Source of the DNA: Ascidiella aspersa | Lineage: Eukaryota | Direction of reading: 5' to 3' | Assembly (NCBI GenBank): GCA_963924565.1 | Contig: OZ004615.1 | Span: 14,384,001 to 14,448,000 of the forward strand | Length of the DNA stretch: 64,000 nucleotides | Shown here: piece after piece, positions 1 through 64,000 of the stretch | Layout of the letters: each line of letters starts with the position of its first letter | Numbering within the stretch: position 1 is the stretch's first letter | Program-made: the position numbers and the translations under genes | The notes under the pieces: model-generated | Databases searched by the model: none | Told to the model about the DNA's origin: nothing | The model's input: the letters and a program-made list of their open reading frames with translations, nothing else

Positions 1-944
1 TAAGCCATTTTGGCGCACTATAGCAACGTTACACGACATTCTATATGTACAACATATACATTATTCGAAACTACGTCAACGTTCTCTCACAGAGAATATA
101 ATTACTCTACTTAGCTACGTTCAAAATGGCCACCGCGGCAAACCACAGTTTCAAATCTTAACTTTGCTACAAAGCAATAAACAAGTGAGAAGTCCTAAAA
201 CCTTTTTAATTGCAGCACACCAACAGCTAAAAAAATCGGCAGCACACCTACGAAATATATGTTGATCGACAACATCAGCAAATATGATGGGCAGCCAATA
301 GAAAAAGGAGTATTTTGTAGTGAAATAAAAAAATAAAAAAAAAATTACGTATTACATTCCTTTATCTTCTGATTTTGCGGTTTTGTAAAAATTTCCGAAT
401 CCAGTCAAAGTCCTAAAAATTGTACTCCCTTGCAATAGCGCACGGTTGATCTCTTACACCTGGAATATTGCATAAGGTCAATAAACCTACCTTGATTTTT
501 CGCGACAATTCGACTGATTAAAAAGTACCCTGGAACACAACTAACACAATTACGGGAATGTCGCGGCACACCGGTTGCGGAGCAATGTCCTAAACGAGCA
601 GAATTACTGCTCGCAAACAAAACCTAACACATTGTAAAAAGAAATAATGTCACAAACATAATATTAGGTTGAGGTGTTTCCTATTTATCTGTCGGACTCT
701 TATGTGTTCATAATTACATGATTTTTGATATCGCTTTATGCAAAGCTCTGTAGCCCACTGAAAACAGCGTCATGGCCCATAGGTTGAAAACCTCTGAATT
801 AAACAGATTCAACTAAGCACAGTTTTTCCAAGCACATTTTTTATTCACCCAAAAAGAAATGTAAAACCTATTTTATCGTAAAACCCGTAGTATCGACTAT
901 GTTATATAAAAATGAATAGGTGATTTTACAATGTACCTTTGCAG

Positions 945-34539: not shown

Positions 34540-37500
34540 ATGGATAAAAAGGACAAGTTCATTGAATTGGCATTTGAGGGTGAACGCCTTTGTAAATCAG
34601 GAGATTATCCTGGAGGAATTGAATGCTTTAAATCGGCACTTAAATTGGGAACAGGTATTAGTTTAAAATACATACAATTTTTTTGTGATTTTTTATTCTA
34701 ATAAATCTAAATTGTTAGTTATGATCAATTTCTGCAATTTGCCTTATGTTTAGTAAAGCTAATAAATAGTATTTCTGTTTCATCATAAAAAAAAAGTGTT
34801 TTTCAATGTTACTGTTCACAACACATATCTGTACATACAAAAATGATTTAGTCCCCCCTTAAAAAAAGCTAACCGATAGCCCTCTTTCCTCTCAAAAAAA
34901 CTTTAGATTCCATTTCGGAAACTACTTAGGATTAAAAAATGCAATTTAACCTCCCACTTTGCAATAAAAAAACACCAACACCATACACCTCCCCTCAAAA
35001 AAGTAAAAAAAGACTTTACCCACTGTTAAATAATAATAATAATTGACTTGATAATCCCATTTACTATTTTTTTTTTTTTTTTTTTTATATTTTTGTAGTT
35101 TCCAAAGACTTGGTGTATGTCCCCTGTTCTAAGAAAGTCTTTTTAAAGTAATATAACATTCAGTACACAAGATAGTTATGGTACCATTTTGTTTATTATT
35201 TAATAGAAGAAAAAAAATCCACTGTTTAAATATATGAATAAATTTAATATTTTTATTTTAATTCAGTTTTAGTAGCATAAAAAATTGCTTTACTCAGCTT
35301 AAATATGTAAAATGACGACCCACTTTCACATGTAACATGTACTTAGAGATAACATTAATATAATGCTCTTATTAATAGTATTATATATCTACCTACAATT
35401 TTGGTAATATTTATTACTTTTCCTAATTTTTATTTTAGATGACTTGACAACTCTCAGTGCAATCTACAGTCAGCTTGGTAATGGCTATGTGTTTGTTGGA
35501 GATTTTGCACAGGCTGTTTTGTATCATCAGCATGACAAAACACTTGCTAAGTATGTTAATACAAACATTAGGATTATTAGGGGTGTTCAAACTAAAATCC
35601 CAGGGAATTCTAGAATATTAGGTTTTTAATCTAGAATAACGAATCCGGAATATCAAATCCTAGTACATTTTTTAATCAATATTACTATTTCGTCCATATA
35701 GTTCAGTGTTTCTCAACCTTTTATAGCTAGCGTCACCCCTCAGAAATAACAAATAGATTGCGCACCCTACAAGATTTTTCCATTGGTAATTCACTAGAAT
35801 GTCACAAAAAACAGAGCTGGAACAACACACATCGACTGTACATAATGTACAAAGTTATAATTGGATTTATTTCACCCTAATCTTTGCATAAAAGGTTGTA
35901 AGGGTTGAGCAAAAATCAGATTCTAAAAAATTCTTAAATATCTTTCGGCACCGTTGATTTATAAACGGTACCCAAGGGTATTATAAGTGGTACCCCAGGG
36001 TGCCGCGACACCCCGGTTGAGAACCACTGATGTAGTTAGTACAAGCAACAAAAAAACCCTAAGCAATTCAATCCCATTGTATAAAACATTGTTGTGTGTT
36101 AGTTTTACTATACTTTACTACAAATGTGATCTGTTATTCAAGTAAAGCAGCAAAGAATCCAAAGTTACTAATAATTGCCAGTTTCGTGTATCTAATACTT
36201 GACAATTGTGCTGTGCTTAACCTTGCTGAATATTGGCCTATTGTTGATGTGAGCAACCCCGTCTTGCATTTCATCTAGGACTGGGGTGTCCAACATTTGG
36301 CACGCGACCTAATAAAAAATGGCATGCAAGCCCTCCCCAAAAAATGCTAAAATTGTTATTTTAGTCAATTGCCCAAAAAGCTTAATTTGTTATTCAGCCA
36401 ATTGTCAGAAAATACTAAGTTTGTTATACAGCCAATTGCCATTGTTTGTTCACCATATAAAACAATCGCCGCTATTAGACAACCAACAATTACTTTTGAT
36501 ATAGTAACATACGTGTGGAGGCTAGCATTCACATAATATTATATAGCTTGGTGTGAAGAAACAAACGTCAGCTCACCGAGAGACACTTTGATGTAGTGAT
36601 GCGCATTTCTACTAGACAGTTTTTTTTTCAAGTTTAAATAAACGTTCCTATTTTTGGTAAAAAAGTGCTTTTATAAATAAAAAAATTTGGTTCGGTTACG
36701 GAACTTTGGCACGGGAAGAAGTTATGAGATAAAAATTGGCATGCCGGCATGTTTGAGTTGGACACCCCTGATCTAGGACCAACGCGTGTTGCGATGGAAT
36801 GTTACTTTTGCAACTTAACGTTTGATTGACACTTAATTATTCGGAAAGGGGCTTGATTGACACTTAATTATTCGGAAAAGTTATTGCTAGATGCAAAGTA
36901 ATTGGTTGCCCAAAAAAACGCTGATGCCGCACTATATTGTGACATTTAAAGCAGGGCTGCGGAGTCCGTTAAAAATAAATGAGCCCGACTCCAGCCGAAA
37001 TAATAACCCAAGTCCGACTCCGGTCAAATGTGCGATTTTGTCGAGTCCCGAGTCCGGCCCGCACTCTACAGCCTGTATTCCGATAATGTATGTAACTAAA
37101 ATAACGTATATTAAGCACTGCATTATAGGGGTGTCCTATCATTCTTTCACTCACAATACATGGTTTGAAAATATTCTACCATGTGCTATTCCACCTTTAC
37201 AGTTTACAGTTGGCGGCCTTTTTAGTTTTAAAATTTGGTACTGTGCATGTGCATGTCGGACTCCGGTAGTTTTATGTGGTCTTTACGCTTGAGTCCCGAG
37301 TCAGACTCCTTGAATCCCAAGTCTACTATTCCGCAGTCCTGATTTAAAGTAAGCAGTAATTGTTGCGCCACCGGTACAAGCCTTTATTCTAACTTGTCTC
37401 TAGCATATGAACAACTAAGGCGAAATTATATCTATGACAATTAGTGCATCCAAAGGATCAAAAAGTCTGACTTTTAGACTTTAAGGTCTTGGACAGTGCA

Positions 37501-40500
37501 CTAATTTGACTTAACAATGTGCTTTAAAAGATTAAGTTTAATAATACTTGACCTACCTAAACCCAAACGCTAACCAGCACCCTAACACAAATAATGTCTG
37601 TTGATTTAAAAATTACATAAACGCTTTAGGCCCCAATACCTCAATTTGTGACAGAACAATCCTATATACAATGGATGAGAAACTATCTTATGCCCACTCG
37701 AGATGGGCTTTTTCTGCAGCATTAAAATAATTATTACATTAAAGCACATTATTCAGGTTAGGGTTCAGGTTAGCGTTTGGGTTAGGGTGGGTTAAGTGTT
37801 ATTAATTCTATCTCACACTTTTAGTTATCATTTGTGAATTTTCAGCGAATATTTTCAATTTATGTATGCCGGGAGTTTACCTAAAGGTCCAAATTAGTGT
37901 ATTGCCACAACCTCAAGGTCTAAAAGTCGGACTTTTCTGCCCTTGGATGCCCTAATTGTCGTAGACCTTTTTGCTTAGAAATGCACTAATTTCTAACGGA
38001 TCGGGTAGATTTGAAGATTTAATATTCTTCTTTGAACATCCCTAGTTATTGTATTACAATAGGACAGGGCTCATGGGTGTTTTACAATCAACAGTATATT
38101 ACTCATTGCCCTGCTTGCCTTCTTTTAATTTGCCTTTTTGTTGAAATAATAAAGTAAGATTTTAAATATATTAATACAACATTTAGTACAGTTACATTAG
38201 GACCTACTAGGGTTATTGCAGTGTACCCACATGACATTCCACTAGCATTATTACTAATGACTGTCAAACTGTTTGACAGCTGCTAAGTTTCTATTGGTAA
38301 TGCAACAGTTAACTTTATCAAAATCAATTTCTAAGTATTTTATTTTGTTATGACATAACATTGTGACTTTAGAACAATTGGTGATCTAGTGGGTGAAGCC
38401 AAGGCCAACAGCAACTTAGCAAGTACTTTTAAAATGATGGGCAACTTTGGAGACGCAATTTCCTGCAGTCAAACACATCTTGACATAGCAAGAAAACTTT
38501 CAAACAAGGTATAAATCTTTTTTTATATGTAAAAAATATAAGGTACTGTACCAGTGTTAGGATTATGCACTCTTCGTTTCGGCGAGTGCTGATTGGCATC
38601 CACTCGCCCTACTAGTGAGTGCCCTTATGCAAGATTAGTTGTTGTTTTCAGACCCTTATACTCTTTATTGTATTACTAGGTCAGTGAAGCAAAAGCATTG
38701 TATAACATGGCCAACATTTATCACGTGAAAGGCAAACACAAATGCAAAACTACCTGCCTCTCCTCTTCATCCATGGACCCTGAAGCACTTGAAGACCTCA
38801 ACATTGCAATCAAGTTTTATACGTAAGTACATATATTAAAACTGATCTACTCCTATTAGTTACGGTGTTCAGGGTAGAATAAACAGATATTCTAGAATAG
38901 TAGATTTCATATACCTTGAACACAAACACACAACATTGCCGTTTCACAAACACACAACATTGCCGTTTTTGACATAGCCAGAACAAAACATTACTCTTTT
39001 GTACATATGTAGCTAAAATAAACTTATTAAGGCCATTTTTTGTCATTCGTAGCTCAAATAAAATTAATCTGGGCACCTTTTTGTCCATAGGTAGCTTAGA
39101 TAAAACTAATTTGGGCACCTTTTTGTTGAAATGTAGCTCGGATAAAACCAATTTGTACGTTTTTGTTTGTACGTAACTCAAATAAAACTAATTTGGGCAC
39201 TTTTTTGGTTGTATGTATGGTCAAATAAAACTAATTTGGGCATTTATTTGCCCATATGTAGCTTCAAGAAAATCAATTTAGGCACTTTTGTGTTGTGTAA
39301 CGTATCAAAATTAAAACTAATTTGGGCATGTTTTTGGCCGAACGTAGCTCCAATAAAACTAATTTGGTTACATTTTTTATTGCGCATAGCTCCAATTTTG
39401 TGGTTTAACGTAGTTCAAATAAAGCTAAAATAGGCACTTTTTTATTCGTATGGATAAACCTAATTCAAGCATTTTGTTGTCCTTAAGTAGCTCCAAATTA
39501 AAACCAATTTAAGCACTTTTAGTCCATATTTAGCTTGGATAAAAACTAATTTCGACACTTTTTGAAACTTTGATAAGGTAATAATGGTGTAAACTTTACA
39601 AAATGAACATAGTTCAAAACAATGAAAAGCAACATAAAAGATTAACAAAGCACAAAACAGAGGGTTGACAAAAAATAATTTTTGATATGTATTTTTTTGT
39701 ACAGTAATTCCTAAACTTTAAACCAACAGACTTTAAAAAAAAATTATTTACATTTTTGGGGCATATTTTAAAATACATGTGCACATTGTTCCTTGTTAAT
39801 GTGTGATGTTGAGATAAATTATTATTATAGTCATGGTGTTTCTATCTAATTATATTATAAAATTTAAACCTTTTAAACATAAAATATTAGTGGAGATCTT
39901 CCTTCTAGTTGTTCGATTTTTTCCTACCTAAGGCTACGAATATCTTGCTTTACCAAGATATAATTAAACACAATCTATATTTAAAAGCAATTTATTACTA
40001 AAAACGTAGTAGAAAATGGTTTCCTGTTTTTATCCATTTTCCTAAATGCATTTCTGTTGTCACCTATATGACCTGTCTGGGGCCTTCATCTTTATCACAC
40101 AGAATAGAATGATTAGATTCTTTACAAACATTGCAATAAAACTCCTCTTTTCAGAAAACATTTTTTTTTTGGTAGGGGTAGGATGACTTAATTTGTCATG
40201 CTAGAAACCATTATTCCAACAGTACTCCAAACCATTTAGACTTTAGGTGTTGAATGTACAGATATTTCTATTTACAAATTTATACTTTTTTTAATATTAT
40301 CTTTTTAATTAAACACTTTAAACATCACATGTGTTGTGGGTCATGTTGATTAATTTTGTCGATATTGTGTTGTAAAATGTTTTTAAAACAGTGGTCATTT
40401 CTACTCCATTGTATGTATACACAGAAAAAATCTCAGTATTGTGCAAGAATTGGGAGATAGAGCAGCCCAGGGAAAAGCATGTGGCAGTCTAGGGAATATT

Positions 40501-43500: not shown

Positions 43501-46500
43501 GACCAAAATGGAGTTTAACAAATACCATTTAGTCTGTATTATAGCCTTCTTATTGAAAAATGCTTCAGTTTAAAGATTTAGTTGATTTTGTTTCTTTTTG
43601 ATTTTTTTTTTTTTTATTATTAAAATTTATTATACTTGTTATTTTTGCAGGCTGACATCGAAAATGGGAATCACAGAAATGAGTCTGCAAATGGTCACTT
43701 AAATGGACAACCTTCAATTCTAAACTCCAATGATGTTGATGTGGAAATCAGTAACAATGTATGTAATAACTTTCAGTTAGGAATAAAGTGAAAGCATATG
43801 AAACAAAAGACTGCAATAATAAATAACTCACTGCATCAGATTAAAGCAATTTGTTATAATTTTTTTGCTTTCATTGCAAAGTATTGAATTTTAAATTTAC
43901 ATTTGTTTAAATTATAAAAGTGTCATTTATAAAAAGGGAATTAGGCTTTTAATGAAATCCCCTAAAAATAATTGCAATAAAGCATTAAAGCAAACACACA
44001 TACAGCAGTAAACAGACACACTATCTAATTGCCTGCTGAAATGACCATGGAATAAAATAAGGATATTGGCAGAATGGATGACTGGCCAATGGCCATACCA
44101 CTATCCTTAGTAACATATGTGAAATCGGACAACAGTCTGTGTAAGAGTGTTCAGTAAATACAATGTTTGCCTATATAATAATTGTTCAAGCTCCCCTTTA
44201 TTTACTATGCAATTCGATTGTGATAACCCCAAGTGTACTCCATCTGTTTTTGTTTTTTTGTTTGGGGGGAGTTCTATATTCCAACCTAATGTTTTATCTG
44301 GCCCCTCTGCTCGTTATAGTACGGAATGTGAAAAAGTTAATTTGAACTAGTTGTATTTTCTTTAGCCAACTCGTTTTTATTTTTTGTAGAATTCAGTACA
44401 GCAAAATGTTACTGCTACCCGTCTACTGTAAAACAATATTATTTTTTTTTATCCCTACTAAACCAAATTTGTAGTAGGTAAATTGTATTTCAGGTACTTA
44501 AAAATACACGGTCATTTTCTATTTGGGGTTTCTAAAATATTTTGACTTTTGACGAATCGGGTTTGATTTGCTTAGTTTAAACGTGAGTCGTGATGCAAAA
44601 ATTGGCGACTTTAAGGAACTAGTTAATGTTCTATAGGCCTTGTTACACAGGGTTGCTACAGATTTTTTGAACAAGTAAAGTATTTGAATTGATTTGTAAG
44701 TCTTAGGAAAACTCTATGAAATGTCTTTGAATTTATTTTATGTGCAGCGTATGTTTTGTGTTTCGAACGTCCCGTAGTAAAACATTTTTTTAATTATTTG
44801 GTGTAGTGTTAAGCATAGAATTCATCCTGTTTTATTTTCGAATAATATTCAAAACGTGTCGAGTGATTCAATTGAGACCCTTACAAGCTTTTCACTTCTT
44901 TCAAAAAACTTGATTGTTTTTTCTTAAAAATGTCTTTTGGCAGTCGGATTTTTTTACTGCGACTAAATGAAAATATTGAATGAATCCTGTCGCTCAAACA
45001 CTGACATTTAACCAGTTATTATGACTTGGTGTTCAGTACGTTGCCTGTATGGGAACCTACTAGCTGAATTGAAATCAAACATCCGTAGTGACAATATTAC
45101 CCGGGACCAGGGTTTCATTTGGCCGACACACCCTTGATTGCAGCAGTCGGCCATATGTTTCCCTTGCTTATTCACTTGGTGCACTGTGGATCCGTGTGAC
45201 TTGCTTTTAGGGTTATTAGTTTTCAAGAGCTGGAATAATCCGCAAGTTGAAAAAGGTTTTAATCGACCTTCGGCTTAGTAGTGCCAGTTCACCTTTGTCG
45301 ACCACATCGCGTTTCATCATTCGCACTATATCGTAAGTTTAATTTGCAACGGCCTAGTATTGGATATGAATTTAGTGAGATCGTGAAAGCAGGCAGTATC
45401 CCGTGGAATCAATTTGAAATTGATTAATTTGGTCATTGCAGATCTCACCAGACTTACAGGGTATGATTTAAATAAAATATATCGTGTATTTAAATAATCC
45501 ATAGTTAAGTTAGATTATTTGTGCGGCTGCGTCTTACGGTTTAATCTAATAGCCTCTTTAATTTGTAAAACAAGTGTGTTTTAGTTCGCCTTGTAAATAC
45601 TAATATGTAATATTTGGTTTATATCATGTTGCAGGCTATTTTGTTATTTAATTTTTACCGTGTTACGGTTATTGCATGTTGGCTTAGTTATCGGTATAGT
45701 ATTTTGCACACAACCGCTATTTTGGTAAACCGCGAGTGTGTAGAACATTATAGTTTTTATACTGGATATAAAACGGCCGATGGTTGTTCAGTTAGTTTGC
45801 CCGAATAAAAAAAACATTGTTTGAAGCGACCGGACGTCACAATTGCGTGATAACCTCGCTTACCAAGAATAAGAACATGCTGACGCGATTAGAACAACAT
45901 CTATATCGAACGTTGTTGCAGGTCATTTCGGTAACGGTTTGGTCAAACCTCTGTAAGTTTCTCTATGCAGTCAAGCTTTGTTCATAATATCGTTGCCGAT
46001 TTTACGTGACTATTTGGTGCTCACCGGGACGAATAAAATTACTTCTGTGACGATTTTATTTATTTATTTATTTGACATTTAAACTATTGAAGCTTCAGTA
46101 ATTTACAAAACAACCTAACTTCCTTTAAACATGTTTAGTAACAATGTTAGCTTTTCAATTGGGCTAAAGTAAAAACTAATCAAACTCTTGTAAAAACTCT
46201 GTTTTTTATCTATATATCTTTTCTCCAAAAATCGTTGCTGTACCTGACAGAATCCGCCTATTTGCCGGTTTTGCAGGGAAGCGAAAAGTTCTTTGACCTG
46301 TTGAGTCGCGTTCAGTGCCGACGCATGGACGACCAGCGGGCCGAGATGAGAAACGACGAAGAGGCGCTGCTTAACCTGCCAGAGTTCCTCCAACAACAGC
46401 TCCAGCACCGACAGGCCCAGGTGATACAGCAGCAGGAAGCGGAGGCGGCCGAACTGGAGGCCGACCAACGAGGTAGGAACTTGTTTCGTGATGGCCGCCG

Positions 46501-48745
46501 TGTTGCCCAAAATTCTCCGATCGCACTAAATGCGTATGTGCAAAATTTATTGTGCCTTGGTTTTAATATTGTAACATACACGTTTCTTCAACGTCGTTCG
46601 ATGGCTGTGGCATTTTAATGCATCACTCGTTAAAAGGCATATTGAATATTTATAGTATAAGCAATACACGCCCATTTTATAGTATAAACAATACACGCCC
46701 AAACAATACACGCCCATTTAGAACATTTGAGGTGGCCACAGACCAATTTAAAAAAAAATACATTAGGGTTAGACAGGAATAATGGCTTGGGGAGGAGTTA
46801 AAAAAGGAATGTAAATTTATTGTTCAGAAGTATCTCACTAATGCACGGTTGAATAAATAATCTGTTTTGAAATATGTTCTGCTGTGTTTTGTTCTAAACC
46901 TGTTTTACAGTTTTTTCTTTCATATAGCACTGAGCCGCAGAATTTTTTTGCAACAGAAATGGGCCCTAAAAGAAAAAAAGGTTGAGAACCACTGTTTTAG
47001 ACGGACATTTTCTTTGTTTTTAGCCGAGGAAAACCACGAGAAGATGAACCATATGATAAGCATGCTAGCCCGCTCACAATCAAAGCGACTAAACGAGCAG
47101 AGAGTAAGCTTGTCCAGTTTACCAGGACTCAGGATCAACGACGATTCACTGCCACTGACTCAGGAAGTTCCGGGTATTTCAGTTAAACATATGAATCTGT
47201 AAAGGTTGTTTCTTTAATGTTTATACACGGGTTTATCCCTATTCACTATATTCCTCTTTATCGTTGCTTTATTGGCCGCGTATTTTCAACTCCAGCTTCT
47301 TAACTTAACTCCAGCTTCTTAACTGTATAGCCATAGCTGATCCACTAGAAGCAAATGGTGGTCCAAACATGGTCGCTGATGGCCGCTTAGCGGAGCCACA
47401 TCCCCAACAATCCTTGGACGAAAACTTCTTTGATAACCTCATTCGGTGTCAGGTCAGTTTATGTTAAGCCCAGCTATCAAGGATAAACCTGCTATGACCT
47501 TTCAGATAATACTATTGTGGGTTGACGTGCTCACGGTCAGTAAAAATATGTTGTTTTGTTTTGTGTGCAGAAAACTTAAATGCAACTCTAAAACGATTTT
47601 CTATGGATGTTTATTTTTTTAACTGAACTAATGATCCATAACGACATGTTATTTTTAATACGTGGTACTTTTGGGAAACTTTCCAATGATCAATGACCAG
47701 AACGCTTCAAGTTAATTATCGGGGCACAAAAAATACCGGACTCATACGTTTATAACTTGTACTACTGTGCCCTGTACAGGTTAAATTGCATTGCCCTAAT
47801 TTTGTAATGTAAAACGTGCGTGATTTTGATCCAGGGCACTCGGTTGAACGACCAGCGAAGCTCTGGTCCATCAGCCGACGCGCAAGTCCAACCCTCCCTC
47901 ACCATTCCCGACGAAGACTTCTTCTCGCTAATTGTGCGCATGCAGTCATCACGCATCGATGATCAGCGCTGCAGGTAGGTTGGCCGTTTTTTATTTGTAT
48001 AATAAATGTATGTTCTTCCAAAGAGTTTACTATTATGCAATGTGAATGCGCTCTTTATATACAAGTAAAACCTAAAATTAAAACAAACCCGAATAACTTG
48101 TATGATAAAGCGTTTGTTTAAAAGGTGTATGTATTTCGCTCAAGTGGCATCATGGATTTTCTATTCAAACCGATTCTATTCAATGAAAAAATATATTCCT
48201 TTAACAAACCTCTTTTCAAATATACTTATTGATAAACTTTTTATCTTCTTGTGTGCGGAGCAGACAAACAAAATCGAAAAATAGAAAACTGCTGCCAACG
48301 GTTTTATGATTTCATGAATACAACATTTTATATAAAACAGTATTTATAGTACGCCCAACAAGTCCCTAAAAATAATGGGACTAATAATCCTGTTCCCACC
48401 AAAATACCTATTAAACCTACATAGAAGTTACAATCTTACTCCTAAACCTATGTGTCTATGCCTCACTTATCCAGTTAAGCCCCACTTTTTCGTGCTAGGA
48501 GATAAAGATGTTAAAAATAGATGGGCACATACTTTTCCTCTGTTTCTATATGTGCGTAAGTTTTTCAATGAAAATTGTGAACAGTTTCTTGGAAAAAGGG
48601 AACATCCGCGATTTAACCGGCTGATATTTATAACGTCAATAAACTAATGCAACAAAAGTCAGCCAAATGCGATTTCCACGATTTTAAACCGAAATGTCAC
48701 CTATTATCTTGTTTTTTTTTTAGATTCGAACCAGTTGACGGATAA
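34540..48745 (+). CDS. GPSM2: G-protein signaling modulator (LGN/AGS3/Pins; GPSM1/2 orthologue): N-terminal TPRs and four GoLoco motifs
   Basis: Exons 34540-34654, 35439-35550, 38373-38508, 38680-38822, 40425-40548, 41068-41183, 41358-41513, 42733-42841, 42979-43134, 43651-43758, [linker exons uncertain], 46277-46472, 47024-47173, 47331-47452, 47835-47974, 48724-48745 (TAA). Peptides ELAFEGERLCKSGD, TLSAIYSQLGN, FFDLLSRVQCRRMDDQR and PDEDFFSLIVRMQSSRIDDQR. Confidence 0.93.
35704..36029. mobile_element. hAT MITE
   Basis: TIR CAGTG(T/G)TTCTCAACC; TSD ATATAGTT/ATGTAGTT. Confidence 0.8.
36281..36770. mobile_element. hAT MITE
   Basis: TIR C(T/A)GGGGTGTCCAAC; TSD ATCTAGGA. Confidence 0.85.
36952..37341. 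mobile_element. hAT-like MITE with GAGTC repeats
   Basis: TIR CAGGGCTGCGGA / TCCGCAGTCCTG; TSD ATTTAAAG. Confidence 0.85.
37430..38006. mobile_element. Long-TIR foldback element; a second copy starts at ~63576
   Basis: 37436-37510 is an inverted copy of 37890-37962; 37600-38006 is the reverse complement of 63576-64000. Confidence 0.75.
39005..39565. repeat. Degenerate ~41-bp minisatellite in a GPSM intron
   Basis: About a dozen tandem units like GTAGCTCAAATAAAACTAATTTGGGCACTTTTTTG. Confidence 0.85.
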
Positions 48746-51700
48746 CGTGTGCGATGACTGTGGCCTTCTTGCACGTTGTTACCCGAGGTTTTCCCTTCAC
48801 GATCACTTGGCTGCGTTTTATTTAGCTTTGCAGCTCGGTCGTTCAACGCAAGTGCAATACCCTTTGCGTTCTCATCTACCCATGAATTTTGCTCTGCGAA
48901 GCATATAAAACTTTGCGGGAACAGTACACAGTTTAATGAATGCATTTAACTAACGCTGGCATATCTGAAAATTTTGCATCGTTGGCCGGTTTACAGCGAC
49001 GTAAACAAAAAAATAAAGCACATTCGGTACCCCGCAAATAACTTAAAATTGCCGTTCTTGGCATTTACCAGTGGATATAAACTGCTACGCCACGAGACGC
49101 GTTTTGTAAATCGTGTTACTTTTTGTAATTTAGATTTAGTAGTAGAGCTACTTCACCTTAGAAGCGTTTCTGCGCCCTATCAGCAATTGTTGTATGACGT
49201 TTTTTTGTTTTGCACGAACGATGACAGCCACGTCATCACATTAATAAGTTACCTATACAAAAACAATCAATTCGACTGAAATAAAAACCTTACTTAAAAT
49301 AATTTGGCAAAATTGTTGCCGTCAAACGTTACACAATTTTCAAATAACTGCCAACTAAAAACTTTGCTTTTGTAAATTTTAATCCAATGAGCAAGCAAGT
49401 ATATAGCTTACTTACACTTGCGCTGCGTTTATTTTTTTCAATAGTAGCGAATTAAGCTTCTATGCAACTTGGCAATTTTCAAACATTTTATTGTACTGCC
49501 GTAATATTATAATTGCTAACAACCAAAAGCAGTAACTTGTTGAAGCACCTTTCACCACAAATAACCCAAGTTGTTTAGATACAGCAAAACCATAGCATGT
49601 TTAATTCTATACAGGTACGTACATTCTACATTTGTGTATTGTGTGGAACAATTCCACACCCAGTGTTTAACTCGCTGTTTTTTTTTTTATTTTGGGAGCG
49701 ATAGAAAAATCATCACAGTCAAAATTGCTTCTCCTACAGTGCCAAGTGATACTTTGCATGTTGTTTCATTTTACTTATTTGCTATTTAACAGCAGTTATT
49801 TCGCAATTTGATAAATAAAACATTGCGATTACCTGTTCCCTTTTTTATGAAAGTCCGTATATTGCGTTCGTACATTGTCTCAGTGCCGTTTCAGTTTAAC
49901 GTTGTATTTCTTTTGCATACTCTGCTTCAATTGAAAACCCGTTTAATTTTGTCCTGGTGTTGTTTTCTTTTTAAATCCAATCTCAATCGCGTTTTCTGCT
50001 GCCGTTTCTGTTGCCCGATCATATTGCTGCTTCACGTGTGTGAATAAAATAACACAACCGCTCTAGACGGTTTCACTTATATTTTTCTGTTTAAAGGTTT
50101 TTTAGTGTTTTCTAGGTTTAATCTTCAAAAGCTGGCAAACAAGGCCTCGTAAAATTATTGTGTATTTTACTAAATAACCTTCTGGCCATTATCACTATAA
50201 AGTCTAGTGTAAATCATTCTATAAAACTTACTTTTAGACATCGGTATCCCTAGTCCACAACTATAAACTTGCGATACGGTACGCAAATTGAAACATTAAT
50301 AACATTTTTATCAAGTTAGGACACTTTAACATTTTACGCCATTTTCGGACGACAACGTTGTGCTAACTTTATTTTATTAATACATCAATTGCTAGATTAT
50401 AACATAATAAACGGTTTTCCAACATAATAAACGGTTTTGGGTAAACTTGGGTGTTAAATTAAGGATATATAGAAAACACGGCGATTGCTAAATTACACGA
50501 GCTAAAATTTATCATAGTTAAATAACGACATCCAGTTTTAGTCAATATGGCAAAGGCCACAAATATGAATACCAGCCATTTTAATTTAGGTTTAAAATTG
50601 CTGTGAGACTTTAGCCTAACCCAAGTTTGACGAATTTTAAACATCTTTATTTAGTATTAAACCACTTAGACTCAATTTTAAGAGTTTAACAGCTTATTTA
50701 GCGACCTCTTTTTGCCATAGCTGAATGTTCTCAATCATAAACAAATCGCCTTCTCCATCGACTGTGTTAGGATGATCAACCTGCAAACAAAATGATTTTC
50801 AATATATCTTCAATAAATAATACAAATTTATTAAAACGTAGAATTCATTTTTCCCAGTTTTAAGAAAATCGGTTCACCCAAACGCACGTTTCCACTTTGC
50901 GTATTGTACGTTGTGGGGTATGAACTCATACACTCATGAATGACAATTTTGGTGCATATATTTAAACGCTATAGTTCGCCCGAGAGCGGAAGGTTTTTTT
51001 AAATTAGTAGTTTTGTGACTTCATATTATGACCGAACTTTGTGACATATCATCTCTAAAAATGTCATGCCATTAACTAAACAGAAATCCTGGACGCGTTC
51101 CTGGTCTTTTATGTCCAGTTGAGCTACTTTTACTTGGGTTTTAATATTGTGAAAAGCCCATGAGTACTAAAACGAGATTTGTTGCAGTGTTTGCCTCGCG
51201 ATCCCTGTGGCACATCGTTGTTGAGATTTGATAAAACGTTATGATAGAAAGATAAATTTGATACAAATCAACTTAAACGAAAATGTAAGGTGCTATGTTG
51301 CTCGTGAGACTCAAAATATTAGAGGCAAATTCCACATATTGGACTCATTTCATTTTTTTAACCCCTGTTCTATAACGTTACAAACAACTTTGTCAATCAA
51401 TAAGTTTTCTCACTGTGAAGTTAGTGACGGAGCCGGAAAGTTAATAAAGTAATGATCCCCTGACGAGAGAACGAGCTCGTAAATTCGGGAGCGAGCTTCA
51501 CTTTGAACCATGTTGCTTGGAAACGATAGAAGAGAAACTAAGCATAAAGCAAATGAAAATAAAGAATAACACGTTGTTTGTTGCGAAACGAAAAAGCAAG
51601 ATAAGTATTAGAAACATGTCAGAAACTCATATGTTCAGTTCGTATTAAGATATATATTTATTTAGGTTATTGGGTTTGTAGAAAATTACCATAGAGTTTG

Positions 51701-52350
51701 TTTACCAATACTTCATTTAGAAAAGGTAATTAGGCAAAATATATTTTAGGTTCGGTTCAACTAAATATTCAAATCACTACAACTGATGAAATTTTTGCAA
51801 ATTTCATTTTTTTGCAAAATAAATATATAACAGTCCAATAATTAAAATAAAGATAAAAGATAATTGTTTAAAATGACAGCCGAAATAACTTGATAGTGCC
51901 TAATGGCAGAACTAAGGCATATAAAGGATGAAGCTTACAAATAGGGCGACTCAAAACAATAATGTATTCCGGGGGTAGTTTGGCGTCTCGGGTTGAAACG
52001 TTAAAAAATGTTTACTGTTTTTTAAGCAAATATACAGCTGTCTTCATTGTTTGAGATATGCGTGCCAAACGTTTTACTTTCAATCCACTTTTTTATTTAA
52101 TAATTTTCATTTCGAAGCAACTTACATGAAACCAAAAGACAGGCGAAAGAAAGGCAAGTGTGCAAGTTCCATTCCCGACCAAACCTCCGTGGACTGCAAC
52201 ACCTCGGGCTCCCGCCAGAGTTCGGTAGTTCTGCGCCCAATCCTCGATGTAGGCAACTGAGTTTAAATCTATATTAAAACCAGAAAATGTTAATACACTT
52301 TTGAGGCGGTACAGATCATCTTCGTTGATATAGAAAACTATCACTTAAAC

Positions 52351-54608
52351 CAGGGGCGTGCAACTGTTTATTGCTACGGGCCACAATGTATACTTACGAT
52401 GGTGCTGCGGGCCAGACAATCGAACAACAAATGTATTTTTTTTTTGAACATTTTTTTATTGGAAAACCGTGACAATCAAGTTACTCGTTAAGTTATTAAT
52501 GGGATGTCTGGTATCTTTTCTCGCCAGAGATCTTGCCAATGTCAGCTTTGACAGAAGAAGTGGCAACTCGAAGTTGATTTGACAAGTGCTCATCTGTGAG
52601 CTGATTCCTACATTTTGTCTTGAACAGCTTCATTTTTGAAAAGAACTGCTCACAGCAGTATGTGCTTCAGAAAAGAGATATTATTTTTCTTGCGTGATTT
52701 TCTATATTTGTGTAATTTCCATACACGTAGCTTCTGTAAAAAGTAAGCAAATCATTTTCATTGTAAGCTCGTTTGAGATCGACGTTTGCTTGCAATTCTA
52801 TTATCTCTAATTGAAATTTAGATGGAATACTTCCACAACCAGGTCAAATGGATGAGCAAAAAGTTGAAAGTCGGCATTGTGTTTTCGAAAATCTTCAAAC
52901 CGAGTTTCAAATGCCGAAATTAACTTTTCAACTATTTCAACATATTTTTCACAGTAAATGTTTTGAATTTGTAACTTTCTACTTTCCAGACAAGGAAAGT
53001 GATTTAGGGATGCTCTGCTCAACTGAGATCGAAAAAGCTTTAGTTTTGCTGTAAATGATGAAATATGTTCGACCATCTTGTTTGCTAACTGATGTTTTCC
53101 TTGCAGCTTTATATTCAATTCTGAAAGGTGATGTGTGATGTCAGTTAAAAAAGCAAAATCGTTCAACCATGTATCATCTTTGAGAAAGGAAACATCTTGA
53201 TCTTTATATTTCATAAAAGTTTCAATATCCTCCTTGAGATTCCAAAATCTCGTCAAAGTGGTAGCTCTGCTTAGCCATCTTACTGCACAAAAATAGTTTA
53301 CATCCGGGTAATCAGAGTCAAGAGCTTGAAGAAACGACTTAAACTGTCGATGATTTAATCCGCGCGCTCGTATGTAATTAACACACGAAACAACCTTTTT
53401 CATGACTTCGCCAAAATCCAGTACTTTTGAGCACAAATTTTCCTGATGAATGATGCAATGGCTCACATAAACGTCCTCAGTTTTAATAGCATCCAAAAAT
53501 CTTTTGACAAATCCATTGTTTTTCCCACCATTGATGGCGCTCCATCCGTGGCGATACCAACCAAGTTAGAAGAATCTATTTCATATTTTTTCATCAATTT
53601 TATTACCTCCTCGCAAATATCTTGACCAGTTGTTGTTGATTTCATACTAGCCATATCTAAATATTCCTCGATTACTTCAAAATTATCTGTCACTCCTCGT
53701 ATAAAAACAACTAGCTGAGCAGTATCGCTCAAGTCTGTACTCTCGTCTAAAGCGATACTAAAAGCAGAGCATTTGCTCATCCTCTCCTTTAGAGAATCTT
53801 CGATATTTTCCGAAAGCATATCTATTCGGCGAGCCACGGTAAAACGAGACAAACTTGTTTGCTCCACTAAATATTTCTTCTCCGGTGACACATTTCCGAT
53901 AAATATCTCCAAACAATTCTTAATGAATTCACCATCAATGTACGGCTTTCCTTTTTCGGCAATTGCTTCAGATAGCTGAAAGCTCAGTTTTGTAACAAGC
54001 TCAACTTCTTTCTTATAACCATGAAATACCTCTTGCTGTTTGCTCAAAGAATTTTTCAATTGCTGCATTTTGTCAACCCGCAATTGGCCTACAACGCTAT
54101 CATAATTAGCAGAGTGCTTCGTACAATAGTGTCGTTTGATATTGTACTCCTTCATTACTGATATAACGTTTTGACAAATCAGGCAAACTACATCTTGATT
54201 GTGTTGAACTACGAAGTAATTTATACACCACTCGTTGTTGAACTTTCGTCTTTCATAATCAACCTTTCTTTTCTTACCAGTACTTGTAAACATTTTTAAT
54301 TTGCTAAGCTTTTTCGTAAGATTAATATTAGTATATTCAGCACACCGCAGCCATAAAATAAGATCACGTTACTGAATCATTACCAGCAGAACAAGGCAGT
54401 TTTACTACAATGCACACTATGACGCAATAACAAAGGTTTAATCAGTGTGACGCAATACTAATTGAAAAATGCCAATGATTCCGTTACAAATTAACTTCTT
54501 ACGATGTAGCAGGGAAAATTGTTAAAAAATAATGGGCTACTTGACGAAGTCTATGCGGGCCACGTAAATAGGTACCGCGGCCCGCGGGCCGTATGTTGCA
54601 CGCCTCTG
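52351..54608 (-). mobile_element. hAT transposon, Buster/SPIN (GTF2IRD2-like) family, full length
   Basis: TIR CAG(G/A)GGCGTGCAAC; perfect 8-bp TSD ACTTAAAC (52343-52350, 54609-54616). Confidence 0.95.
52496..54293 (-). pseudogene. hAT transposase, frameshifted
   Basis: ORFs 53463-54293 and 52807-53496 carry a BED finger (CLIC..HY..KH), SIALDESTD, ATDGAPSMVG, HCIIHQE and VRWLS. Frameshifts at ~53520 and ~52830 and a stop just before STYCCEQFFS. Confidence 0.92.
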
Positions 54609-56156
54609 ACTTAAACAATGACATGTTTGTTTTTTCAATCGCAGTTTCCACGTTTTTGCTGCTGTGGGTTTTGACAATCTTTGGCTCTCGAATCGATAAA
54701 TGATGATGTTTCATGGGTACACTTGAACTTATATACCAAAATTGTTGATGTGTTATATATAAATCAAGCAAAACAATCATTAACTGTTATTTATTTTCCA
54801 AATAATCTAACAACGCATTTTATATCGTTAAATGACACGTTGCGTACGTAATGCGCAATGCCCACGTAAATTGTCTTGATTATTGCCCAATTATTACTTG
54901 ATTGGTAAGGCTATCGCGTGCTACTTAACGCTACGCTGGAATGTGTAATAGCAAAAGTTCGAAATCCTTGAGCGATTAATTACCTTTCGGTAATACGTTA
55001 CGCACTTTGTTGGAAAACATTTTTTTCTTTTAAAGAAAAATGATGCTAACTTTAAATTGCCTTGGTGTTACCATGTCTAAGTACATATGATGTCGAATTT
55101 AGGTGGTAACTGAAACACCAACAAACCAGTAGGGGATCCAGGCGGGTAAGTGGTCATGGCAACCCAACAAACTGTATTTTTTACGTATTTTAACTACGTA
55201 AGTGAAAACATTTTTTGCGTTACTCACGAATCTCAATTTCGTTTCTTATGTTTTTACCGATTTTGAGACATTTGTTTTAAGCCAAAGGCGTTGTGCGTCA
55301 CATCCCACCACCAAAAATAACAATCTTGGCAAGCTAAACAAAATAAAGGCGTTGTTTTGCATTGCGCGAATCGATAACATCTTTGTAATATATAGCTTTT
55401 GTATAAGAATTAACACCTATCCAACCTAAAACTTTACCCAATGGACGAACTGTTTAGTCTAGTCTTTTAAATTACTGATTTATACCTCCACGCTTAGATT
55501 AACTTTTTGACGTCACGTTTTGACGTGACTTTGCGACGTCATCTATATTTTTTTTTTTTTTTGCCTTCGGCGTGCCTAGAAACCTTACATGGCGCACCGA
55601 TTAAGATCGTCACTATAGTAGTAGATATTACACGCATGACTAACCTACGCGCATTGTTTTGTTTTTTATAATTACAGCAATTATATGTTATCGTGCAATA
55701 CAAAAGTATGCCCGCACATATTTAAGAAAGAGGTAACAATCCAAAAGATCTTATTGTATTATGTGCCACGGACCGCATTGAAAACGATGCGAGGGCCATA
55801 TTTTTTGCTGGCCTTCTATATAGTGAAACAATAACAAAGTGAGCGACAAAATCTCAAAACTAAAACAGTGCTGTTATTTCTGGTAGTTTTAAAGATAACT
55901 TTTATGTCAAAACAATGTGCGATTAACATGTTCTCCTTAAATAGGCCATAAATTCCACTTAAGTATATTCGTGTCGCAATTTTAAACTAAACTCTTCCGC
56001 TAACCACATATAACCATATATTGTTGAGCATATATTTTTTTCTTCTGGTTGCATATTTTTTAGCTGTCTTACAATAAACCAGTGGTTTTTAACCTTTTTT
56101 GCGACTCAAACTTATCCGGGGAGCGGTGGTGACCTAAGAATAGTTATGTTATAAAC

Positions 56157-57770: not shown

Positions 57771-60305
57771 TTATAAACGATATTTACACCTATTCGATTA
57801 AAACTAAGAAACCCTGTTATTTTCCTCAAGGCAAACATACAAAACAAATTGACAAATGTAAAACAAAATACAAATGCAGCACAGCATCAATATGTGCACT
57901 GACATAAAAAAGATGCCTGTGTCCAGTCAAACTCGTGCGTATATTGGGAACTGAAATCCAGTTAACATGCGTTCAAGGAGATTGCGGTAATCAATTTGCT
58001 TGCTATATGTTGCGTTGTTGTCATTGCTTATAATTAATTAATTAATTATTATCGGACGGTTTAACGAATTTTTATAGTTTAACATTTGACAACGACTTGA
58101 CTTAAAATAATTTTCTTACCGGGACGATGACTTTTTCACCGGGACGCTTGAAACTTTTTATAGATGCAGTCACTAATTTACATAACGGGTCGTCTAAATC
58201 AAGTAATCTTAGAAAACTTTAAATTATCGTTGGGGGACTATAATCTTAATCGCTCCGGCCTAATTTCGCCACTTTTTAAAAGTTACTGGACAATGAACGT
58301 TTGATTTATCCAATATGTGCTAATTCGAATATGTTATCAATCTAAAGGTTATACGCAATGCTGGAAATGATTTCAGTTACTTTAAAATATCAGGTTCAGT
58401 TTCGGTTCACCTCACTAAAAAACAGCTTATATTACGGTTCGTATAAAATTAGCCAAATATTTTTCATAAAACTCGGGTTCGAGGCAGGACTGGAAGTACA
58501 ATAATTTATTAGCGGAACGCATGAAAAATTTTAGAGATTACGTCACAAAGCTACGCCCGTAAACAAACAAAAACAGACAACCGTGCGCAAATATGAAACT
58601 GCAAACATTGGCTCAATACGGTATATTCGAAATCTAATACAATAATTGTTAACCTTGTGACACTTGCATACCGGTAAAAATACAAGATTTCTTCTTGTAA
58701 CAGGTAACCAGAATTCCTAAGACACGGTTCTCTACTGAGACAACTATAGGGCAAGTTGCCAATAAACAACACTTACAAAGAGGTAACGTATTATATATAG
58801 TTGCAACCTTGGTGCAAAACTGAAATTCCGATGGACAGTCGAGATTGGTGTTATAATAAAGAATATTGGCCTACTAAGGGAAACAATCAATTGGATCAAA
58901 TCAGTTAGTCCAGTTATGACGTATTAACGGCGTCATCAACAACAATTTAATTTGCAATTTAACGTTGTAGTTCAACGTTGTGTTTTTTTTTTTGCATACT
59001 TTATTTCTATTAAAACCTTTATGTCTTGGTGTTGTTTTATCTTTAAATTCACTTATACTTTTGTGTTAACCCTTGTTTTAAAGTTTTTTCATGATTTGGG
59101 GGTTTAATCTTAAAAGCTGGTAAAGAAGTCCTGGTGGATTTATTGTATAAAGTCTATAGTAAAACTATAAAGACTGGTTCGCAATAAGAAAAGTTTGGGC
59201 AGTAATAATATTTTATCAACTTAAGACTCTTTTACATTTTACATCAATTTCGGGTGAAAGATTTGTTCTAACTATATTTTATCAATACAGTAATTGCTGA
59301 TTATTACATGATAGAAGGTTGTCCAAATAGCAGAGAAAATGAGGGACGGTCTGGGATAAGAGAAACCTCTGCGTCGCGACGCCCTGGTGAGTGGTTTTAA
59401 TCTTTCAAGGGCGTCGCACAACGATTATGATCCGTATTCAAACTTAACTAAGGTAAGAATATATTAGTAGAAATATTATTTTCTGTCATCAATTTTACCA
59501 AACTGTAGCAATTGATTATTATAATTATGATTTTATAATCACATTCCCCAATACTGATTCAATTCGGCGCTCGACAAATAAGGGCAGGAGTTTATTTAAA
59601 TAAGGGTATATAAATATATGGACAAATTAGGGAAAGCCAATATTTCCATCAAAACGTAAATATGTAGTACAAATTGTGCTATCCAAGCATAATCGTCCCG
59701 ACAAAAACGATAGATCGTAAAATGACTTTTATTGCGACATGGTATACGAATAATGATGCAACACGACGCAATCCAAAACGAAATCGCACACAAAGATATC
59801 ACGCAGAGCTGAGAAAACAGAGCTTTTTTCGCCGAAGAACAATTGGTTTTAATCTATGGTTTTAATTTTTTTAATAAAGCAAACCTAGGCATTCAATATT
59901 ACTATTTTTATATTGCAAGATGCCTCGTCAGATTATCAAACTTTTACAAGGGCATCGCGATAAAAAACACTGGTATTGATAAAGGGCGTAAAACGGATGG
60001 CTAGAAGAAGGATCTATATAATAAATATGGGACGTCGGTTGTCCGATTGAGTATATATATATATAGAATATAGAATACATAACCACATGAATTTTTAATT
60101 TTTTGTAATTTTGCCGTAAAAACGCAGAGTTTTGGGCAATATGGCAGAGATCACAAACATGAACACCAGACGCAAAAATCATAGTTGTAAATTTAACAAG
60201 AAGTCTTACTTTTTTAAATGATTATAATATTTTGACCGACAAATATCATTACAGTTTATAGAATAAACATTAAACACAACAAACATCGCGACAACAACAA
60301 AAAAA

Positions 60306-62719
60306 TTAAAAATGAGCGTTTCTTTTTCTACGTTTACTCTCCTCATCCAGTGTTCCAGCTTCTCCGCGAACCACGTCAACTTCAGCAGCTGAAAACCACA
60401 CGTCGGTGTAGCGGAACTGGAACCAAATCTAACAAATAAAGTAAACATTTATTATATTGCGATAAGTTTGTACTTATGATTTAAATTTAGGTTTAAAATT
60501 ACTATAAGACTAATAAACCTTGTTTTGGGAATGTGCCTAAATATTATTATTTACTATTAAACCAACTCTGACTTAATCTTGTAACAACAATTTTTAAACA
60601 ATTTTTTTTTTATTAACTTATTTAGCGACCTCTTTTTGCCATGGCTGAATGTTCTCAATCATAAACAAATCGCCTTCTCCATCGACAGTGTTAGGATGGT
60701 CAACCTGCAAACAAAATGATTTTATAAAACCTTTAAGTAACTTTTACGGTGATATGGTATAAAAAAAATAGTTTATGTATAATTATCATGTGTTAACTTT
60801 TGTACAATAATATAAATTAATTTGTGACGCATAATATTTTAAAAACAAAATTTTGTTCGATAACAGGGGTTTATAAACTGTGGGGGGGGGGGAGTGGCGA
60901 TAAGAAGTTTAACAACCCCTCTTCTATAATATTATACACCATTCTGTTAATTAATAAGTGTTCTCACTGTAAAGTTGGCGACGGGAGCTGGGAAGTTGAT
61001 CAGGTAATGATCCCCTGACGAGAGACCGAGCTCGTAAATTCGGGATCGACCTTCACTTTGAACCATGTTGCTTGGAAACGAAAGGAGAGAAACTACATAA
61101 AGCAAATAAAAATAAAGAATGAAACGTTGTTGTTGCGAAATGAAAAATCAAGATATGAATTAAAATATGTTAGAAAACCATATGTTAAGTTCCTATTAAG
61201 ATTCATATTTATTTAGGTTATTGGGTTTGTAGAAATTTCCTTACTGTTTGTTTAGCAATACTTCATTTAGAAAAGTTAATTAGAGGTTTAGAATAACTAA
61301 TACTGTACTACAATCACCTTCGTTTTCATCAGTTGTATCGCAGTCGAAGATAATCCCCGTTTCGTTAAAGGGTTCGCCCAGGTAGTTGATGACAAAAGTG
61401 AAACGGTCACTTGTACCTTGCCAGAACTTATTGGACGCGGATAAAGTGTACCTTCCTTCTGCCGAGCTTGACTTAAGTGGGACTATGTCGCAATCTTCGC
61501 ACTATAAAACAACATCGCTTGTAAGCAAAACACTTTTGTCGTTGTAGACTTTTAACATAATTGAAATAGTAGGCCTACCACGGAAAATTCCAATGATTGA
61601 AATTGGAATAAAGGTTATTTGCTAAAAAATAATGCCGTTATATTTTAAATAAGCATTAAACTTTGTAGTGCTTATAACGCCTGAACTAAGGGATATAAAG
61701 AATGAGGCTTACAAACAGGGCGACCTATAACAATTATATATTGCGTGGTTTGTTTGGCGCGTCGGGTTAAAACGTAAAAATATGTTTTATGGTATTTACT
61801 TTTGATCCACCTTAACGATTTATTAATTTTTATTTCGAAGCAACTTACATGAAACCAGAAGACAGGCGAAGGAAAGGCAAGTGTGCAAGTTCCATTACCG
61901 ACTAAACCTCCGTGGACTGCAACACCTCGGGCTCCCGCCAGAGTTCGGTTGTTCTGCGCCCAATCCTCGATGTAGGCAACTGAGTTCACATCTTTGTTAA
62001 AAAAGTAAAAATGAATACCGTTCCGAGGCGGCACTGAGATCATTGAGTTATTTGGTTAGGCTAATCCAGTGGTTTCCAAATTTTTTTGTTCCGTGGTCAA
62101 TTTTTTTTGAAAAACAGTTTTTGGCCCACCATGTCGCCGTAACATTTTTTTGTATGCCCTTTAGCCCGCAGGGGTCGGCAATCTACGGCCCGCGGGCCGG
62201 ATGGACCTGGATATGATAAATATCGTCTACAATTACATAGTTGGACAATTTCTCAATAATGCATTGATTCTAGCAACATCTAAAAATAACCATTTTTACT
62301 TCCGGGTCATTTTTAGATTGGAATTAAATATCTCTATGACTACACTAAATTTTAAATAAACTGCCGTGCTAACTGCGTAGCGAATAAAAAGACATAAGTC
62401 GTGAGATCTTGCCTTTAGGTATAGTTCACAAATAGCCAAAATTATTTAAAATGGCCTCGTTTCTATATAGTTTTAGATATGCTAACAATTATTGTAGTAA
62501 AACAAAACTTATTTAGTTGCAATATTTTAAAAAGCTCCATAGCCCACTGAAAATTGTCTTGTGGCCCACTCATTGGCCATGGCCCAGTTTGGGAAGCCAC
62601 TGGGCTAAACCCCCTTCGTTGATATAGAAAACTTCAACATTAACAGTTGCAGATATATTTTACTAACCTTGCGCCATCACAGTGGCAATCAAAAGCACAA
62701 AAATAATTGCAGTTTCCAT
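60306..62719 (-). CDS. Uncharacterised secreted protein, 233 aa, two degenerate beta-rich repeats (possibly CBM2-like)
   Basis: Exons 62719-62668, 61991-61849, 61501-61318, 61092-60968, 60704-60630, 60428-60306 total 702 nt in frame. Signal peptide METAIIFVLLIATVMAQ; C-terminal KRRKR. The exon 5 donor is weak, so an alternative stop after KEVAK is possible. Confidence 0.8.
62067..62602. mobile_element. hAT MITE in intron 1 of the secreted protein gene
   Basis: TIR CAGTGG(T/C)TTCC; TSD GGCTAATC/GGCTAAAC; contains a second hAT end, CAGGGGTCGGCAA, at ~62169. Confidence 0.8.
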
Positions 62720-63575
62720 GTTTTTGCTGCTGTGGGTTTTGACAATCGTTGGCTGATCTCGAATTGATAAATGATAATGTTTCAGGGTACACTTGAACTT
62801 ATATACCAAAATTGTTGATGTGTTATTTATAAATCGAGCAAAACAATAATTAACTGTTTGGTATTTATTTTCCAAATAATCCAACGCCGTAGTTTATGTC
62901 GTTAAGTGGGACGTGGCGTACGTAATGCGCAATGCCCACGTAAAGTGTCTTGATGATTGCCCAATTATTACTTGATTGTTAAGGCTACCGCGTGCTTATT
63001 AAGGCTGCGCTGGAATGTCGTAATAGCAAAAGTTCGAAATCCCTAAGCGATTAATTAACTTTCGGTAATACGTCACTTGCTTTGTCAGAAAACACTGTTG
63101 TCTTTCAAAGTATTTAAATTGTGCGTTGGTGTTACCATGTCTATAACTACTTATGATGTCAAATTTAGGTAACTGAAGCACCAACAAACCAATAGTGGAT
63201 CCAGGTGGGTAAGTGGCCATGGCCACCCAACAAACTGCATTTTTTGCGCATTTTAACTACGTATACGTAAAAATTCTTTGCGCTACTCACGAATCTCGAT
63301 TTCGCTTCTTTTGTTTTGACCGATTTTGAGACATTTGTTTTAAGCCAAAGGCGTCGTGCGTCACCCCGCACCACCAAAAATTAAAATTTTGACAACTTCA
63401 ACAAAATAAAGGCGTTGTTTTGCATTGCGCGATTCGATAACATCTTTGTAATATATAGCTTTTGTATTAGAATTAACACCTATCCAACCTAAAACTTTAC
63501 CCAATGATCGAACTGTTTAGTCTAGTGTTTTTTGAAGATTACTGCTTTATGCCGCCACGTTTAGATTAACTTTTC

Positions 63576-64000
63576 ACCCGATCCGTTAGAAATCAGTGCA
63601 TTTCTAAGCAAAAAGGTCTACGACAATCAGGGCATCCAATGGCAGAAAAGTCTAGACTTTTAGACCTTGAGGTCCTGGCAATGCACTGATTTGGACCTTT
63701 AGGTAAACTCCAGGCGTAGATAAATTAAAAATATTCATTAAAAGTTCAGAAAAGATAACAAAAAATATGAGATAAGATTAATAACACTTGACCCACCCTA
63801 ACCCAAACGCTAACCCAAACCCTAACCCAAATAATTTGCGTTATTTTAATAATTCTTTAAATGCTGGGGAAAAGGCCCAAACTCGGATGGTAATAAGATG
63901 GTTTCTCGTCCATTGTATTTAAGATTATTACGTCACAAATTGAGGTATTGGGGCCTGAAGCGTTATAATTATTAAATTATCGCACATTATTTGGGTTAGG
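63576..64000. mobile_element. Foldback element copy, truncated by the window end
   Basis: Begins ACCCGATCCGTTAGAAA; reverse complement of 37600-38006. Confidence 0.75.

Follow-up and report, generated by a model that had tools for sequence, protein, structure and literature searches.

A six-exon gene for a predicted secreted two-repeat protein in Ascidiella aspersa, with a possible carbohydrate-binding-module-like fold

The 64,000-nucleotide stretch of Ascidiella aspersa DNA analyzed here (the window) raises the question of whether six short exons near its right-hand end form a real gene and, if so, whether the product could bind the cellulose of the ascidian tunic. The sequence-only reading of this locus had proposed a secreted protein with two CBM2-like repeats, belonging to a non-catalytic family of cellulose-binding matrix proteins. 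The splicing could be reproduced in full: the six exons run along the minus strand from 62719 to 60306, all five introns are of the GT-AG type (676, 347, 225, 263, and 201 nt, in phases 1, 0, 1, 0, and 0), and the spliced frame of 702 nt encodes 233 amino acids plus a stop codon, identical to the earlier translation. A six-exon gene with a predicted secreted product was thereby recovered as originally read, with the following features.

62668..62719, minus strand: exon 1, start codon and predicted signal peptide (residues 1-17), ending in a phase-1 GT donor
61849..61991, minus strand: exon 2, first half of repeat 1, with W28, C53, W63, and H65 and sequons N32 and N50
61318..61501, minus strand: exon 3, second half of repeat 1, with C66-x-x-C69, W92, C119, and sequon N111, followed by an acidic linker
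60968..61092, minus strand: exon 4, first half of repeat 2, with sequon N166; phases 1 to 0, as in exon 2
60630..60704, minus strand: exon 5, middle of repeat 2, with W190; its weak donor is kept in the tandem copy described below
60306..60428, minus strand: exon 6, closing part of repeat 2 and a basic tail that includes RRKR, then the stop codon; 60337 is a possible phase-1 donor inside it
62800..62805, minus strand: TATA-like box by consensus match only, approximately 86 nt upstream of the ATG and found upstream of the tandem copy too

The exons have a GC content of 40 to 53% (exon 2, 53%) and the introns one of 21 to 37%, in a window whose overall range of 29 to 41% is that of AT-rich animal DNA. 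Using a codon model trained on neighboring genes, we found the annotated frame to be preferred in four of the six exons (exons 2-5); it was not preferred in exons 1 and 6, and the score of exon 6 was weak. Exon 1 and the 3′ end are predicted from sequence signals only.

A CPSF1 gene (PF03178) occupies approximately 900-9400 on the plus strand, and the best of seven matches to one of its exons came from Clavelina lepadiformis (84% over 62 residues); by this single exon the DNA is probably that of an ascidian, though of another species. It is followed by a DUF3504 gene (PF12012; 10855-15692, minus strand) with two long low-complexity exons, presumably ZMYM/QRICH1-like, by a cyclin-fold exon (PF00134; 20217-20498, minus strand), CABLES-like as judged by eye, and by GoLoco exons (46151-47460, plus strand), two of them matching PF02188 and a third recognized by eye, which likely belong to a GPSM/LGN-type G-protein regulator. 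At 21341-24623, nested inverted repeats of 173, 97, and 60 nt (92-94% complementary) surround an open frame of 179 codons for which Pfam gave no confident match; this is probably what is left of a DNA transposon. A tRNA-like match lies within a CPSF1 intron (8023-8097, plus strand; Rfam RF00005, 44.5 bits), and the resemblance of sequence near 1570-1650 to it suggests a tRNA-derived SINE. A degenerate 42-bp tandem array of approximately 9 to 11 copies is found at 38993-39455. Members of a dispersed repeat family, marked by CCCTAA tracts like those of telomeres, lie at 37431-38006 and 63576-64000 (inverted copies, with 85% identity across 428 nt), with others at 24.7-25.1 and 30.9-31.0 kb. A Tfap2-type GCCNNNGGC site occurs upstream of the two-repeat gene (63344-63352) and upstream of its tandem copy (55281-55289). 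The sites of this type at 63344, 62188, and 62596 were set aside as evidence, on counts of 7 against 3.8 expected and 6 against 3.6 expected in the window, which do not exceed chance, and the one at 63344 was discounted also for lying inside a dispersed repeat.

The evidence that the reading frame is that of a selected protein comes from a degenerate copy located 8 to 10 kb downstream of the gene and interrupted by a mobile element, which the sequence-only reading had passed over.

50706..54651, minus strand: tandem copy (pseudogene), with exons 2, 4, and 5 at 91-95% identity to the two-repeat gene
52351..54608, minus strand: transposon of 2.26 kb sitting where exon 1 meets intron 1 in the tandem copy, taken to be of hAT/SPIN type

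The copy has GTG in place of ATG, an exon 1 broken after five codons, and a 1-nt deletion and a stop at the end of exon 4, and it is devoid of exons 3 and 6. Over the 108 codons shared with the gene, we counted 14 synonymous and 7 non-synonymous changes (dS 0.21, dN 0.029, dN/dS 0.13, Fisher p = 1.5e-5); exon 2 accounts for 3 synonymous and 3 non-synonymous codon changes. Because non-synonymous changes are few relative to synonymous ones, we read the frames of exons 2, 4, and 5 as belonging to a selected protein, and on this comparison of sequences we regard the two-repeat gene as real. The neutral share of the copy's branch is at most 27%, so both copies would have been functional for most of their history; the copy died recently, by deletions, a frameshift, and the transposon, after a long period under purifying selection. 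Allelic or assembly duplication was ruled out by the dS of 0.21, the deletions, and the transposon. The latter carries 14-bp terminal inverted repeats (one mismatch), an 8-bp target duplication, and a frameshifted transposase with a Spin-doc zinc finger (PF18658) and a DUF4371 match below the curated cut-off. Intron 1 of the gene contains approximately 570 nt (62044-62613, minus strand) without counterpart in the tandem copy, possibly a MITE insertion, which has a short GC-rich motif in common with the ends of the hAT-type transposon. As for the proposed family, what the window holds is one gene and one dead copy, and no further member was found among its 2948 six-frame pieces.

It could be argued that the two-repeat gene is itself silent or newly dead, since selection on its copy lasted until a short time ago and gave way to rapid decay, and since no database protein matches its single exons. 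Yet the frame, start codon, predicted signal peptide, ten splice sites, and TATA-like box of the gene are all intact, whereas the disruptive changes fall in the copy, and we consider this reading highly improbable.

A separate matter is whether the product is complete. The six exons might make up only the 5′ end of a gene whose product is longer or anchored in the membrane, or the remnant of a truncated modular glycosidase that has lost its catalytic part; animal GH9 enzymes are described as carrying CBM2 at their N-terminus (PMC5977491). Within exon 6, the possible phase-1 donor at 60337 comes after an acidic run like the one ending exon 3, the codon score is weak, the RRKR lies oddly close to the stop for a furin site, and approximately 20 hydrophobic residues follow in a shifted frame just past the stop. 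However, the best exon score between 55.5 and 60.3 kb is 5.8 (exons 2-4 score 16 to 19, and the short exon 5 likewise 5.8); the six-frame pieces of the window contain no extra repeat and no glycosidase piece; hydrophobic translations of T-rich 3′ flanks arise by chance; and a poly(A)-like signal lies approximately 200 nt past the stop. We therefore weigh an incomplete product as rather improbable. Either the donor at 60337 or the hydrophobic stretch directly past the stop (60200-60310, minus strand) could mean a different C-terminus.

In the predicted protein, hydrophobicity is confined to the N-terminus (11-residue Kyte-Doolittle mean of 3.2, against a maximum of 0.93 over 19 residues in the mature chain), which likely forms a signal peptide, as judged from hydropathy, with a cleavage site after Ala16 that was read by eye. 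The mature chain of approximately 24 kDa (pI ~4.6) carries neither a membrane anchor nor a catalytic domain, and 31 of its 217 residues are Asp or Glu, compared with 3% in the CBM2 set described below. We located four N-glycosylation sequons (N32, N50, N111, and N166) and only four cysteines (53, 66, 69, and 119), none of them in repeat 2 or at the start of repeat 1. The furin-like RRKR is present four residues ahead of the stop; a role for furin is doubtful, because cleavage there would remove just those four residues. A ZP-domain protein, considered on account of the RRKR, was set aside on cysteine spacing, which does not seem to fit that of ZP-N or Ig.

The internal repeat is weak by sequence. 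Local alignment of repeat 1 with repeat 2 was not significant (1016 of 5000 shuffles as high), and global alignment gave a modest signal (50 of 3000). The similarity resides in exons 2 and 4, for which 8 of 3000 shuffles were as high, whereas exon 3 against exons 5 and 6 combined gave no signal (1316 of 3000); ungapped windows anchored on the introns, picked post hoc, were equaled by 5 to 11 of 20,000 shuffles. Exons 2 and 4 both start in phase 1 and end in phase 0, and the two phase-0 introns fell in one column in 68 of 96 intron-blind alignments, bearing out the claim of an equivalent intron in both halves. We accept the repeat because intron position and phase match, and the two repeats are probably the products of an ancient duplication in which a module of two exons was copied.

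Searches for relatives used single exons of 25 to 61 residues as queries, a length at which distant relatives escape. Word searches returned none of 24 candidates at E ≤ 1 for exon 3 and none of 547 at E ≤ 10 for the exon 2/exon 4 alignment. Searched singly, and so with at most approximately half a domain each, exons 2-6 had no Pfam match at E ≤ 10 (0 of 5), including to PF00553, PF09478, CUB, Ig, FN3, and ZP. In a phmmer search of 1.84 billion representatives, exon 3 matched seven long repeat proteins, three of them with Ig domains; we rejected all seven as spurious, each being summed from 4 to 11 weak stretches. No usable match was obtained in the ESM Atlas (exons 3 and 2), no credible one among PDB sequences (exons 2, 3, 4, and 6 and the exon 2/exon 4 alignment), and tblastn against plasmids gave four records for exon 3 (best E of 5) and six for exon 2 (best E of 0.8). 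Because queries this short miss distant relatives, the lack of single-exon relatives would reflect fast divergence or absence from the searched sets rather than uniqueness.

To compare the protein with CBM2 directly, we assembled a reference from 121 bacterial motif-scan loci, of which 109 were kept (the other 12 lacked the first-Trp motif or were truncated) and reduced to 26 non-redundant domains; the five that were scanned were all PF00553. This reference is bacterial only and biased toward actinobacteria and toward one motif. Against an HMM of the 26 domains, the spliced protein scored -0.4 bits, a value reached by 1195 of 2562 reported shuffles; the cut-off of the separate Pfam model (PF00553) is 24 bits. 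The profile comparison with hhalign gave a probability of 0.47% against the bacterial set, and 19 of 150 shuffles were as high. Both hhalign and hmmsearch picked the same stretch around W92.

In glocal alignment to the CBM2 profile, only 3 to 6 of 300 shuffles equaled repeat 1, and W28 and W92 fell, unguided, on the first and last surface Trp in two of three gap settings; the reversed repeat scored nearly as well (-8.3 vs -5.0). Repeat 2 was at shuffle level against the same profile (208-218 of 300). Among 174 beta-rich decoy windows, 23 to 39 equaled or beat repeat 1 and 126 to 133 equaled or beat repeat 2, while held-out true CBM2s scored 180 to 191; the decoys derive from nine proteins, seven of which are themselves weak exon-3 matches, and this null is not neutral. 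The first-to-last Trp spacing is 64 in repeat 1, compared with a median of 55 and a maximum of 57 in the 26 domains, and the buried Trp of CBM2 is absent. Of the surface aromatics, W28 and W92 align and the middle position is W63 or H65 depending on register, while repeat 2 has W190 only. An AlphaFold model of exon 3 alone (mean pLDDT of 46, three short strands) is uninformative on the domain fold. We do not file the two-repeat protein as CBM2, because no score against this narrow bacterial reference is significant, some decoys do as well, and Trp spacing, buried Trp, and acidity all differ. The phrase "two CBM2-like repeats" was an overstatement, as a candidate aromatic face exists in repeat 1 only and repeat 2 never scores, and the resemblance would be a reasonable lead for one repeat. 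Animal CBM2 domains are reported to match the CBM2 model only at E ~1e-10 (PMC5977491); a tunicate form that evolved faster than these could therefore escape such a profile.

In a second reading, the protein is a secreted, fast-evolving one whose two beta-sandwiches descend from another kind of domain (CUB-, Ig-, FN3-, or lectin-like); its partners would be proteins or cells, in a matrix, gamete, or immune setting, and its CBM2 look would be a generic strand-loop-strand pattern. Ig and other beta-rich repeat proteins score equally against the CBM2 profile, three of the seven phmmer matches have Ig domains, the protein is acidic and heavy in predicted N-glycosylation, and the repeat module is phase 1-1 symmetric. 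Symmetric modules of phase 1-1 are typical of shuffled animal extracellular domains. On the other side, the Ig matches are spurious sums, no single exon from 2 to 6 matches CUB, Ig, or FN3 in Pfam, and the order of the Trp-containing motifs in repeat 1 follows CBM2. We tentatively favor a non-catalytic polysaccharide-binding matrix protein acting through a CBM-like fold, and consider an unrelated beta-sandwich nearly as likely.

Under the CBM-like reading, each repeat of approximately 100 residues would fold as a jelly-roll sandwich of eight strands, a distant form of the CBM2/CBM49 type. Read by eye, the hydrophobic pattern of repeat 1 would correspond to eight strands, and the jelly-roll strand order and disulfide pairing are likewise by-eye assignments. 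This fold places its third strand next to its final one, so that a C53-C119 bond would join the two neighbors, with L55/F117 and F57/I115 in register; a second bond, C66-C69, would close the hairpin formed by strands four and five. W63 aligns with the sequon Asn166 of repeat 2, and H65 lies near the middle-Trp position of CBM2; because of its alignment with a glycosylation Asn, W63 should be solvent-exposed. W28, W63/H65, and W92 would then form a flat face stacking on beta-linked glucans, as do Trp17, Trp54, and Trp72, given as the surface aromatics of Cex (PMC11272768). Repeat 2 would keep only W190; with the counterpart of W28 lost and a predicted glycan (N166) on that face at the position matching W63, it would serve as a spacer, as an adaptor, or for binding a partner. 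For the basic tail, sulfated glycans are a possible ligand. The whole protein might thus serve as a monovalent anchor, coating or tethering polysaccharide in an extracellular layer, for which the tunic is the obvious candidate and the feeding mucus or gut lining are alternatives.

Binding to the cellulose of the tunic in particular is putative, and we consider it doubtful. Equally unlikely in our estimate is that this is the first case of an animal's own structural protein that binds cellulose without being catalytic, derived from a CBM2-type module that left its glycosidase, was duplicated, and came to be secreted into the tunic, where repeat 1 would grip cellulose microfibrils and the glycosylated repeat 2 and the tail would link to sulfated glycans or proteins.

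Among known systems, the CBM2 modules (PF00553) of Cellulomonas fimi Cex (PDB: 1EXG) and of the animal GH9 enzymes of Branchiostoma and Mizuhopecten are similar in being beta-rich extracellular modules of approximately 100 residues, and resemble repeat 1 in the order of an early Trp, an L-x-F-P strand, a Y-x-L strand, Trp-x-Gly, and a final F-x-F strand. Repeat 1 differs in its longer Trp spacing, with a CxxC insert, and in having no buried Trp. The two-repeat protein as a whole is acidic rather than Ser/Thr-rich and has no catalytic domain attached, and its repeat 2 has one of the three aromatics.

Closer in architecture are the Luke lectins of Acanthamoeba, described as non-catalytic tandem jelly-rolls in which three aromatics bind cellulose, and the CBM49-like wall proteins of slime moulds, which likewise have two or three tandem domains of approximately 100 aa and no enzyme (PMC11423589). 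The predicted two-repeat protein shares the Luke-type layout of secreted ~100-aa tandem domains without a catalytic domain, and also comes from a eukaryote that builds a cellulose matrix, its own role there being putative. Compared by eye, each Luke domain has three aromatics and a disulfide that ties its beginning to its end, and the spacers are Ser-rich (PMC11423589), whereas the cysteines here lie elsewhere and in repeat 1 only, and the spacer is short and acidic. Because the terminal disulfide and the Ser-rich spacers are absent, the predicted protein is not a Luke-lectin member.

The tunic genes CesA, GH6-1, Epi-1, and the oikosins are similar in being lineage-restricted and linked to a cellulose coat (PMC10334666, PMC10986139, 10.1101/2024.09.30.615758, PMC3071929). 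By their descriptions, CesA and GH6-1 are GT2 and GH6 proteins, Epi-1 is a trefoil protein, and the oikosins are house proteins, and none is presented in these accounts as tandem CBM-like. Epi-1 also has a signal peptide and is nonetheless described as cytosolic (same group of sources), which calls for caution in assuming a tunic localization here. Tunic formation is described as poorly known, and a tunic forms even without cellulose synthase (PMC10986139, 10.1101/2024.09.30.615758); therefore, other components must exist. In the titles and abstract openings of the literature searched, which covers few subscription journals, no ascidian or tunicate CBM-type tunic protein is described. Should the fold prove to be another one, the protein would be a secreted orphan like many others in ascidians, of limited interest, with a tidy history of how a gene arises and dies lying next to it. 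If the cellulose-binding reading is true, it would be a chordate parallel to the Acanthamoeba Luke lectins, diverged beyond the reach of sequence searches, and a tunic cellulose-binding protein would offer both a handle on fibril organization and, for cellulose materials, a new module for binding.
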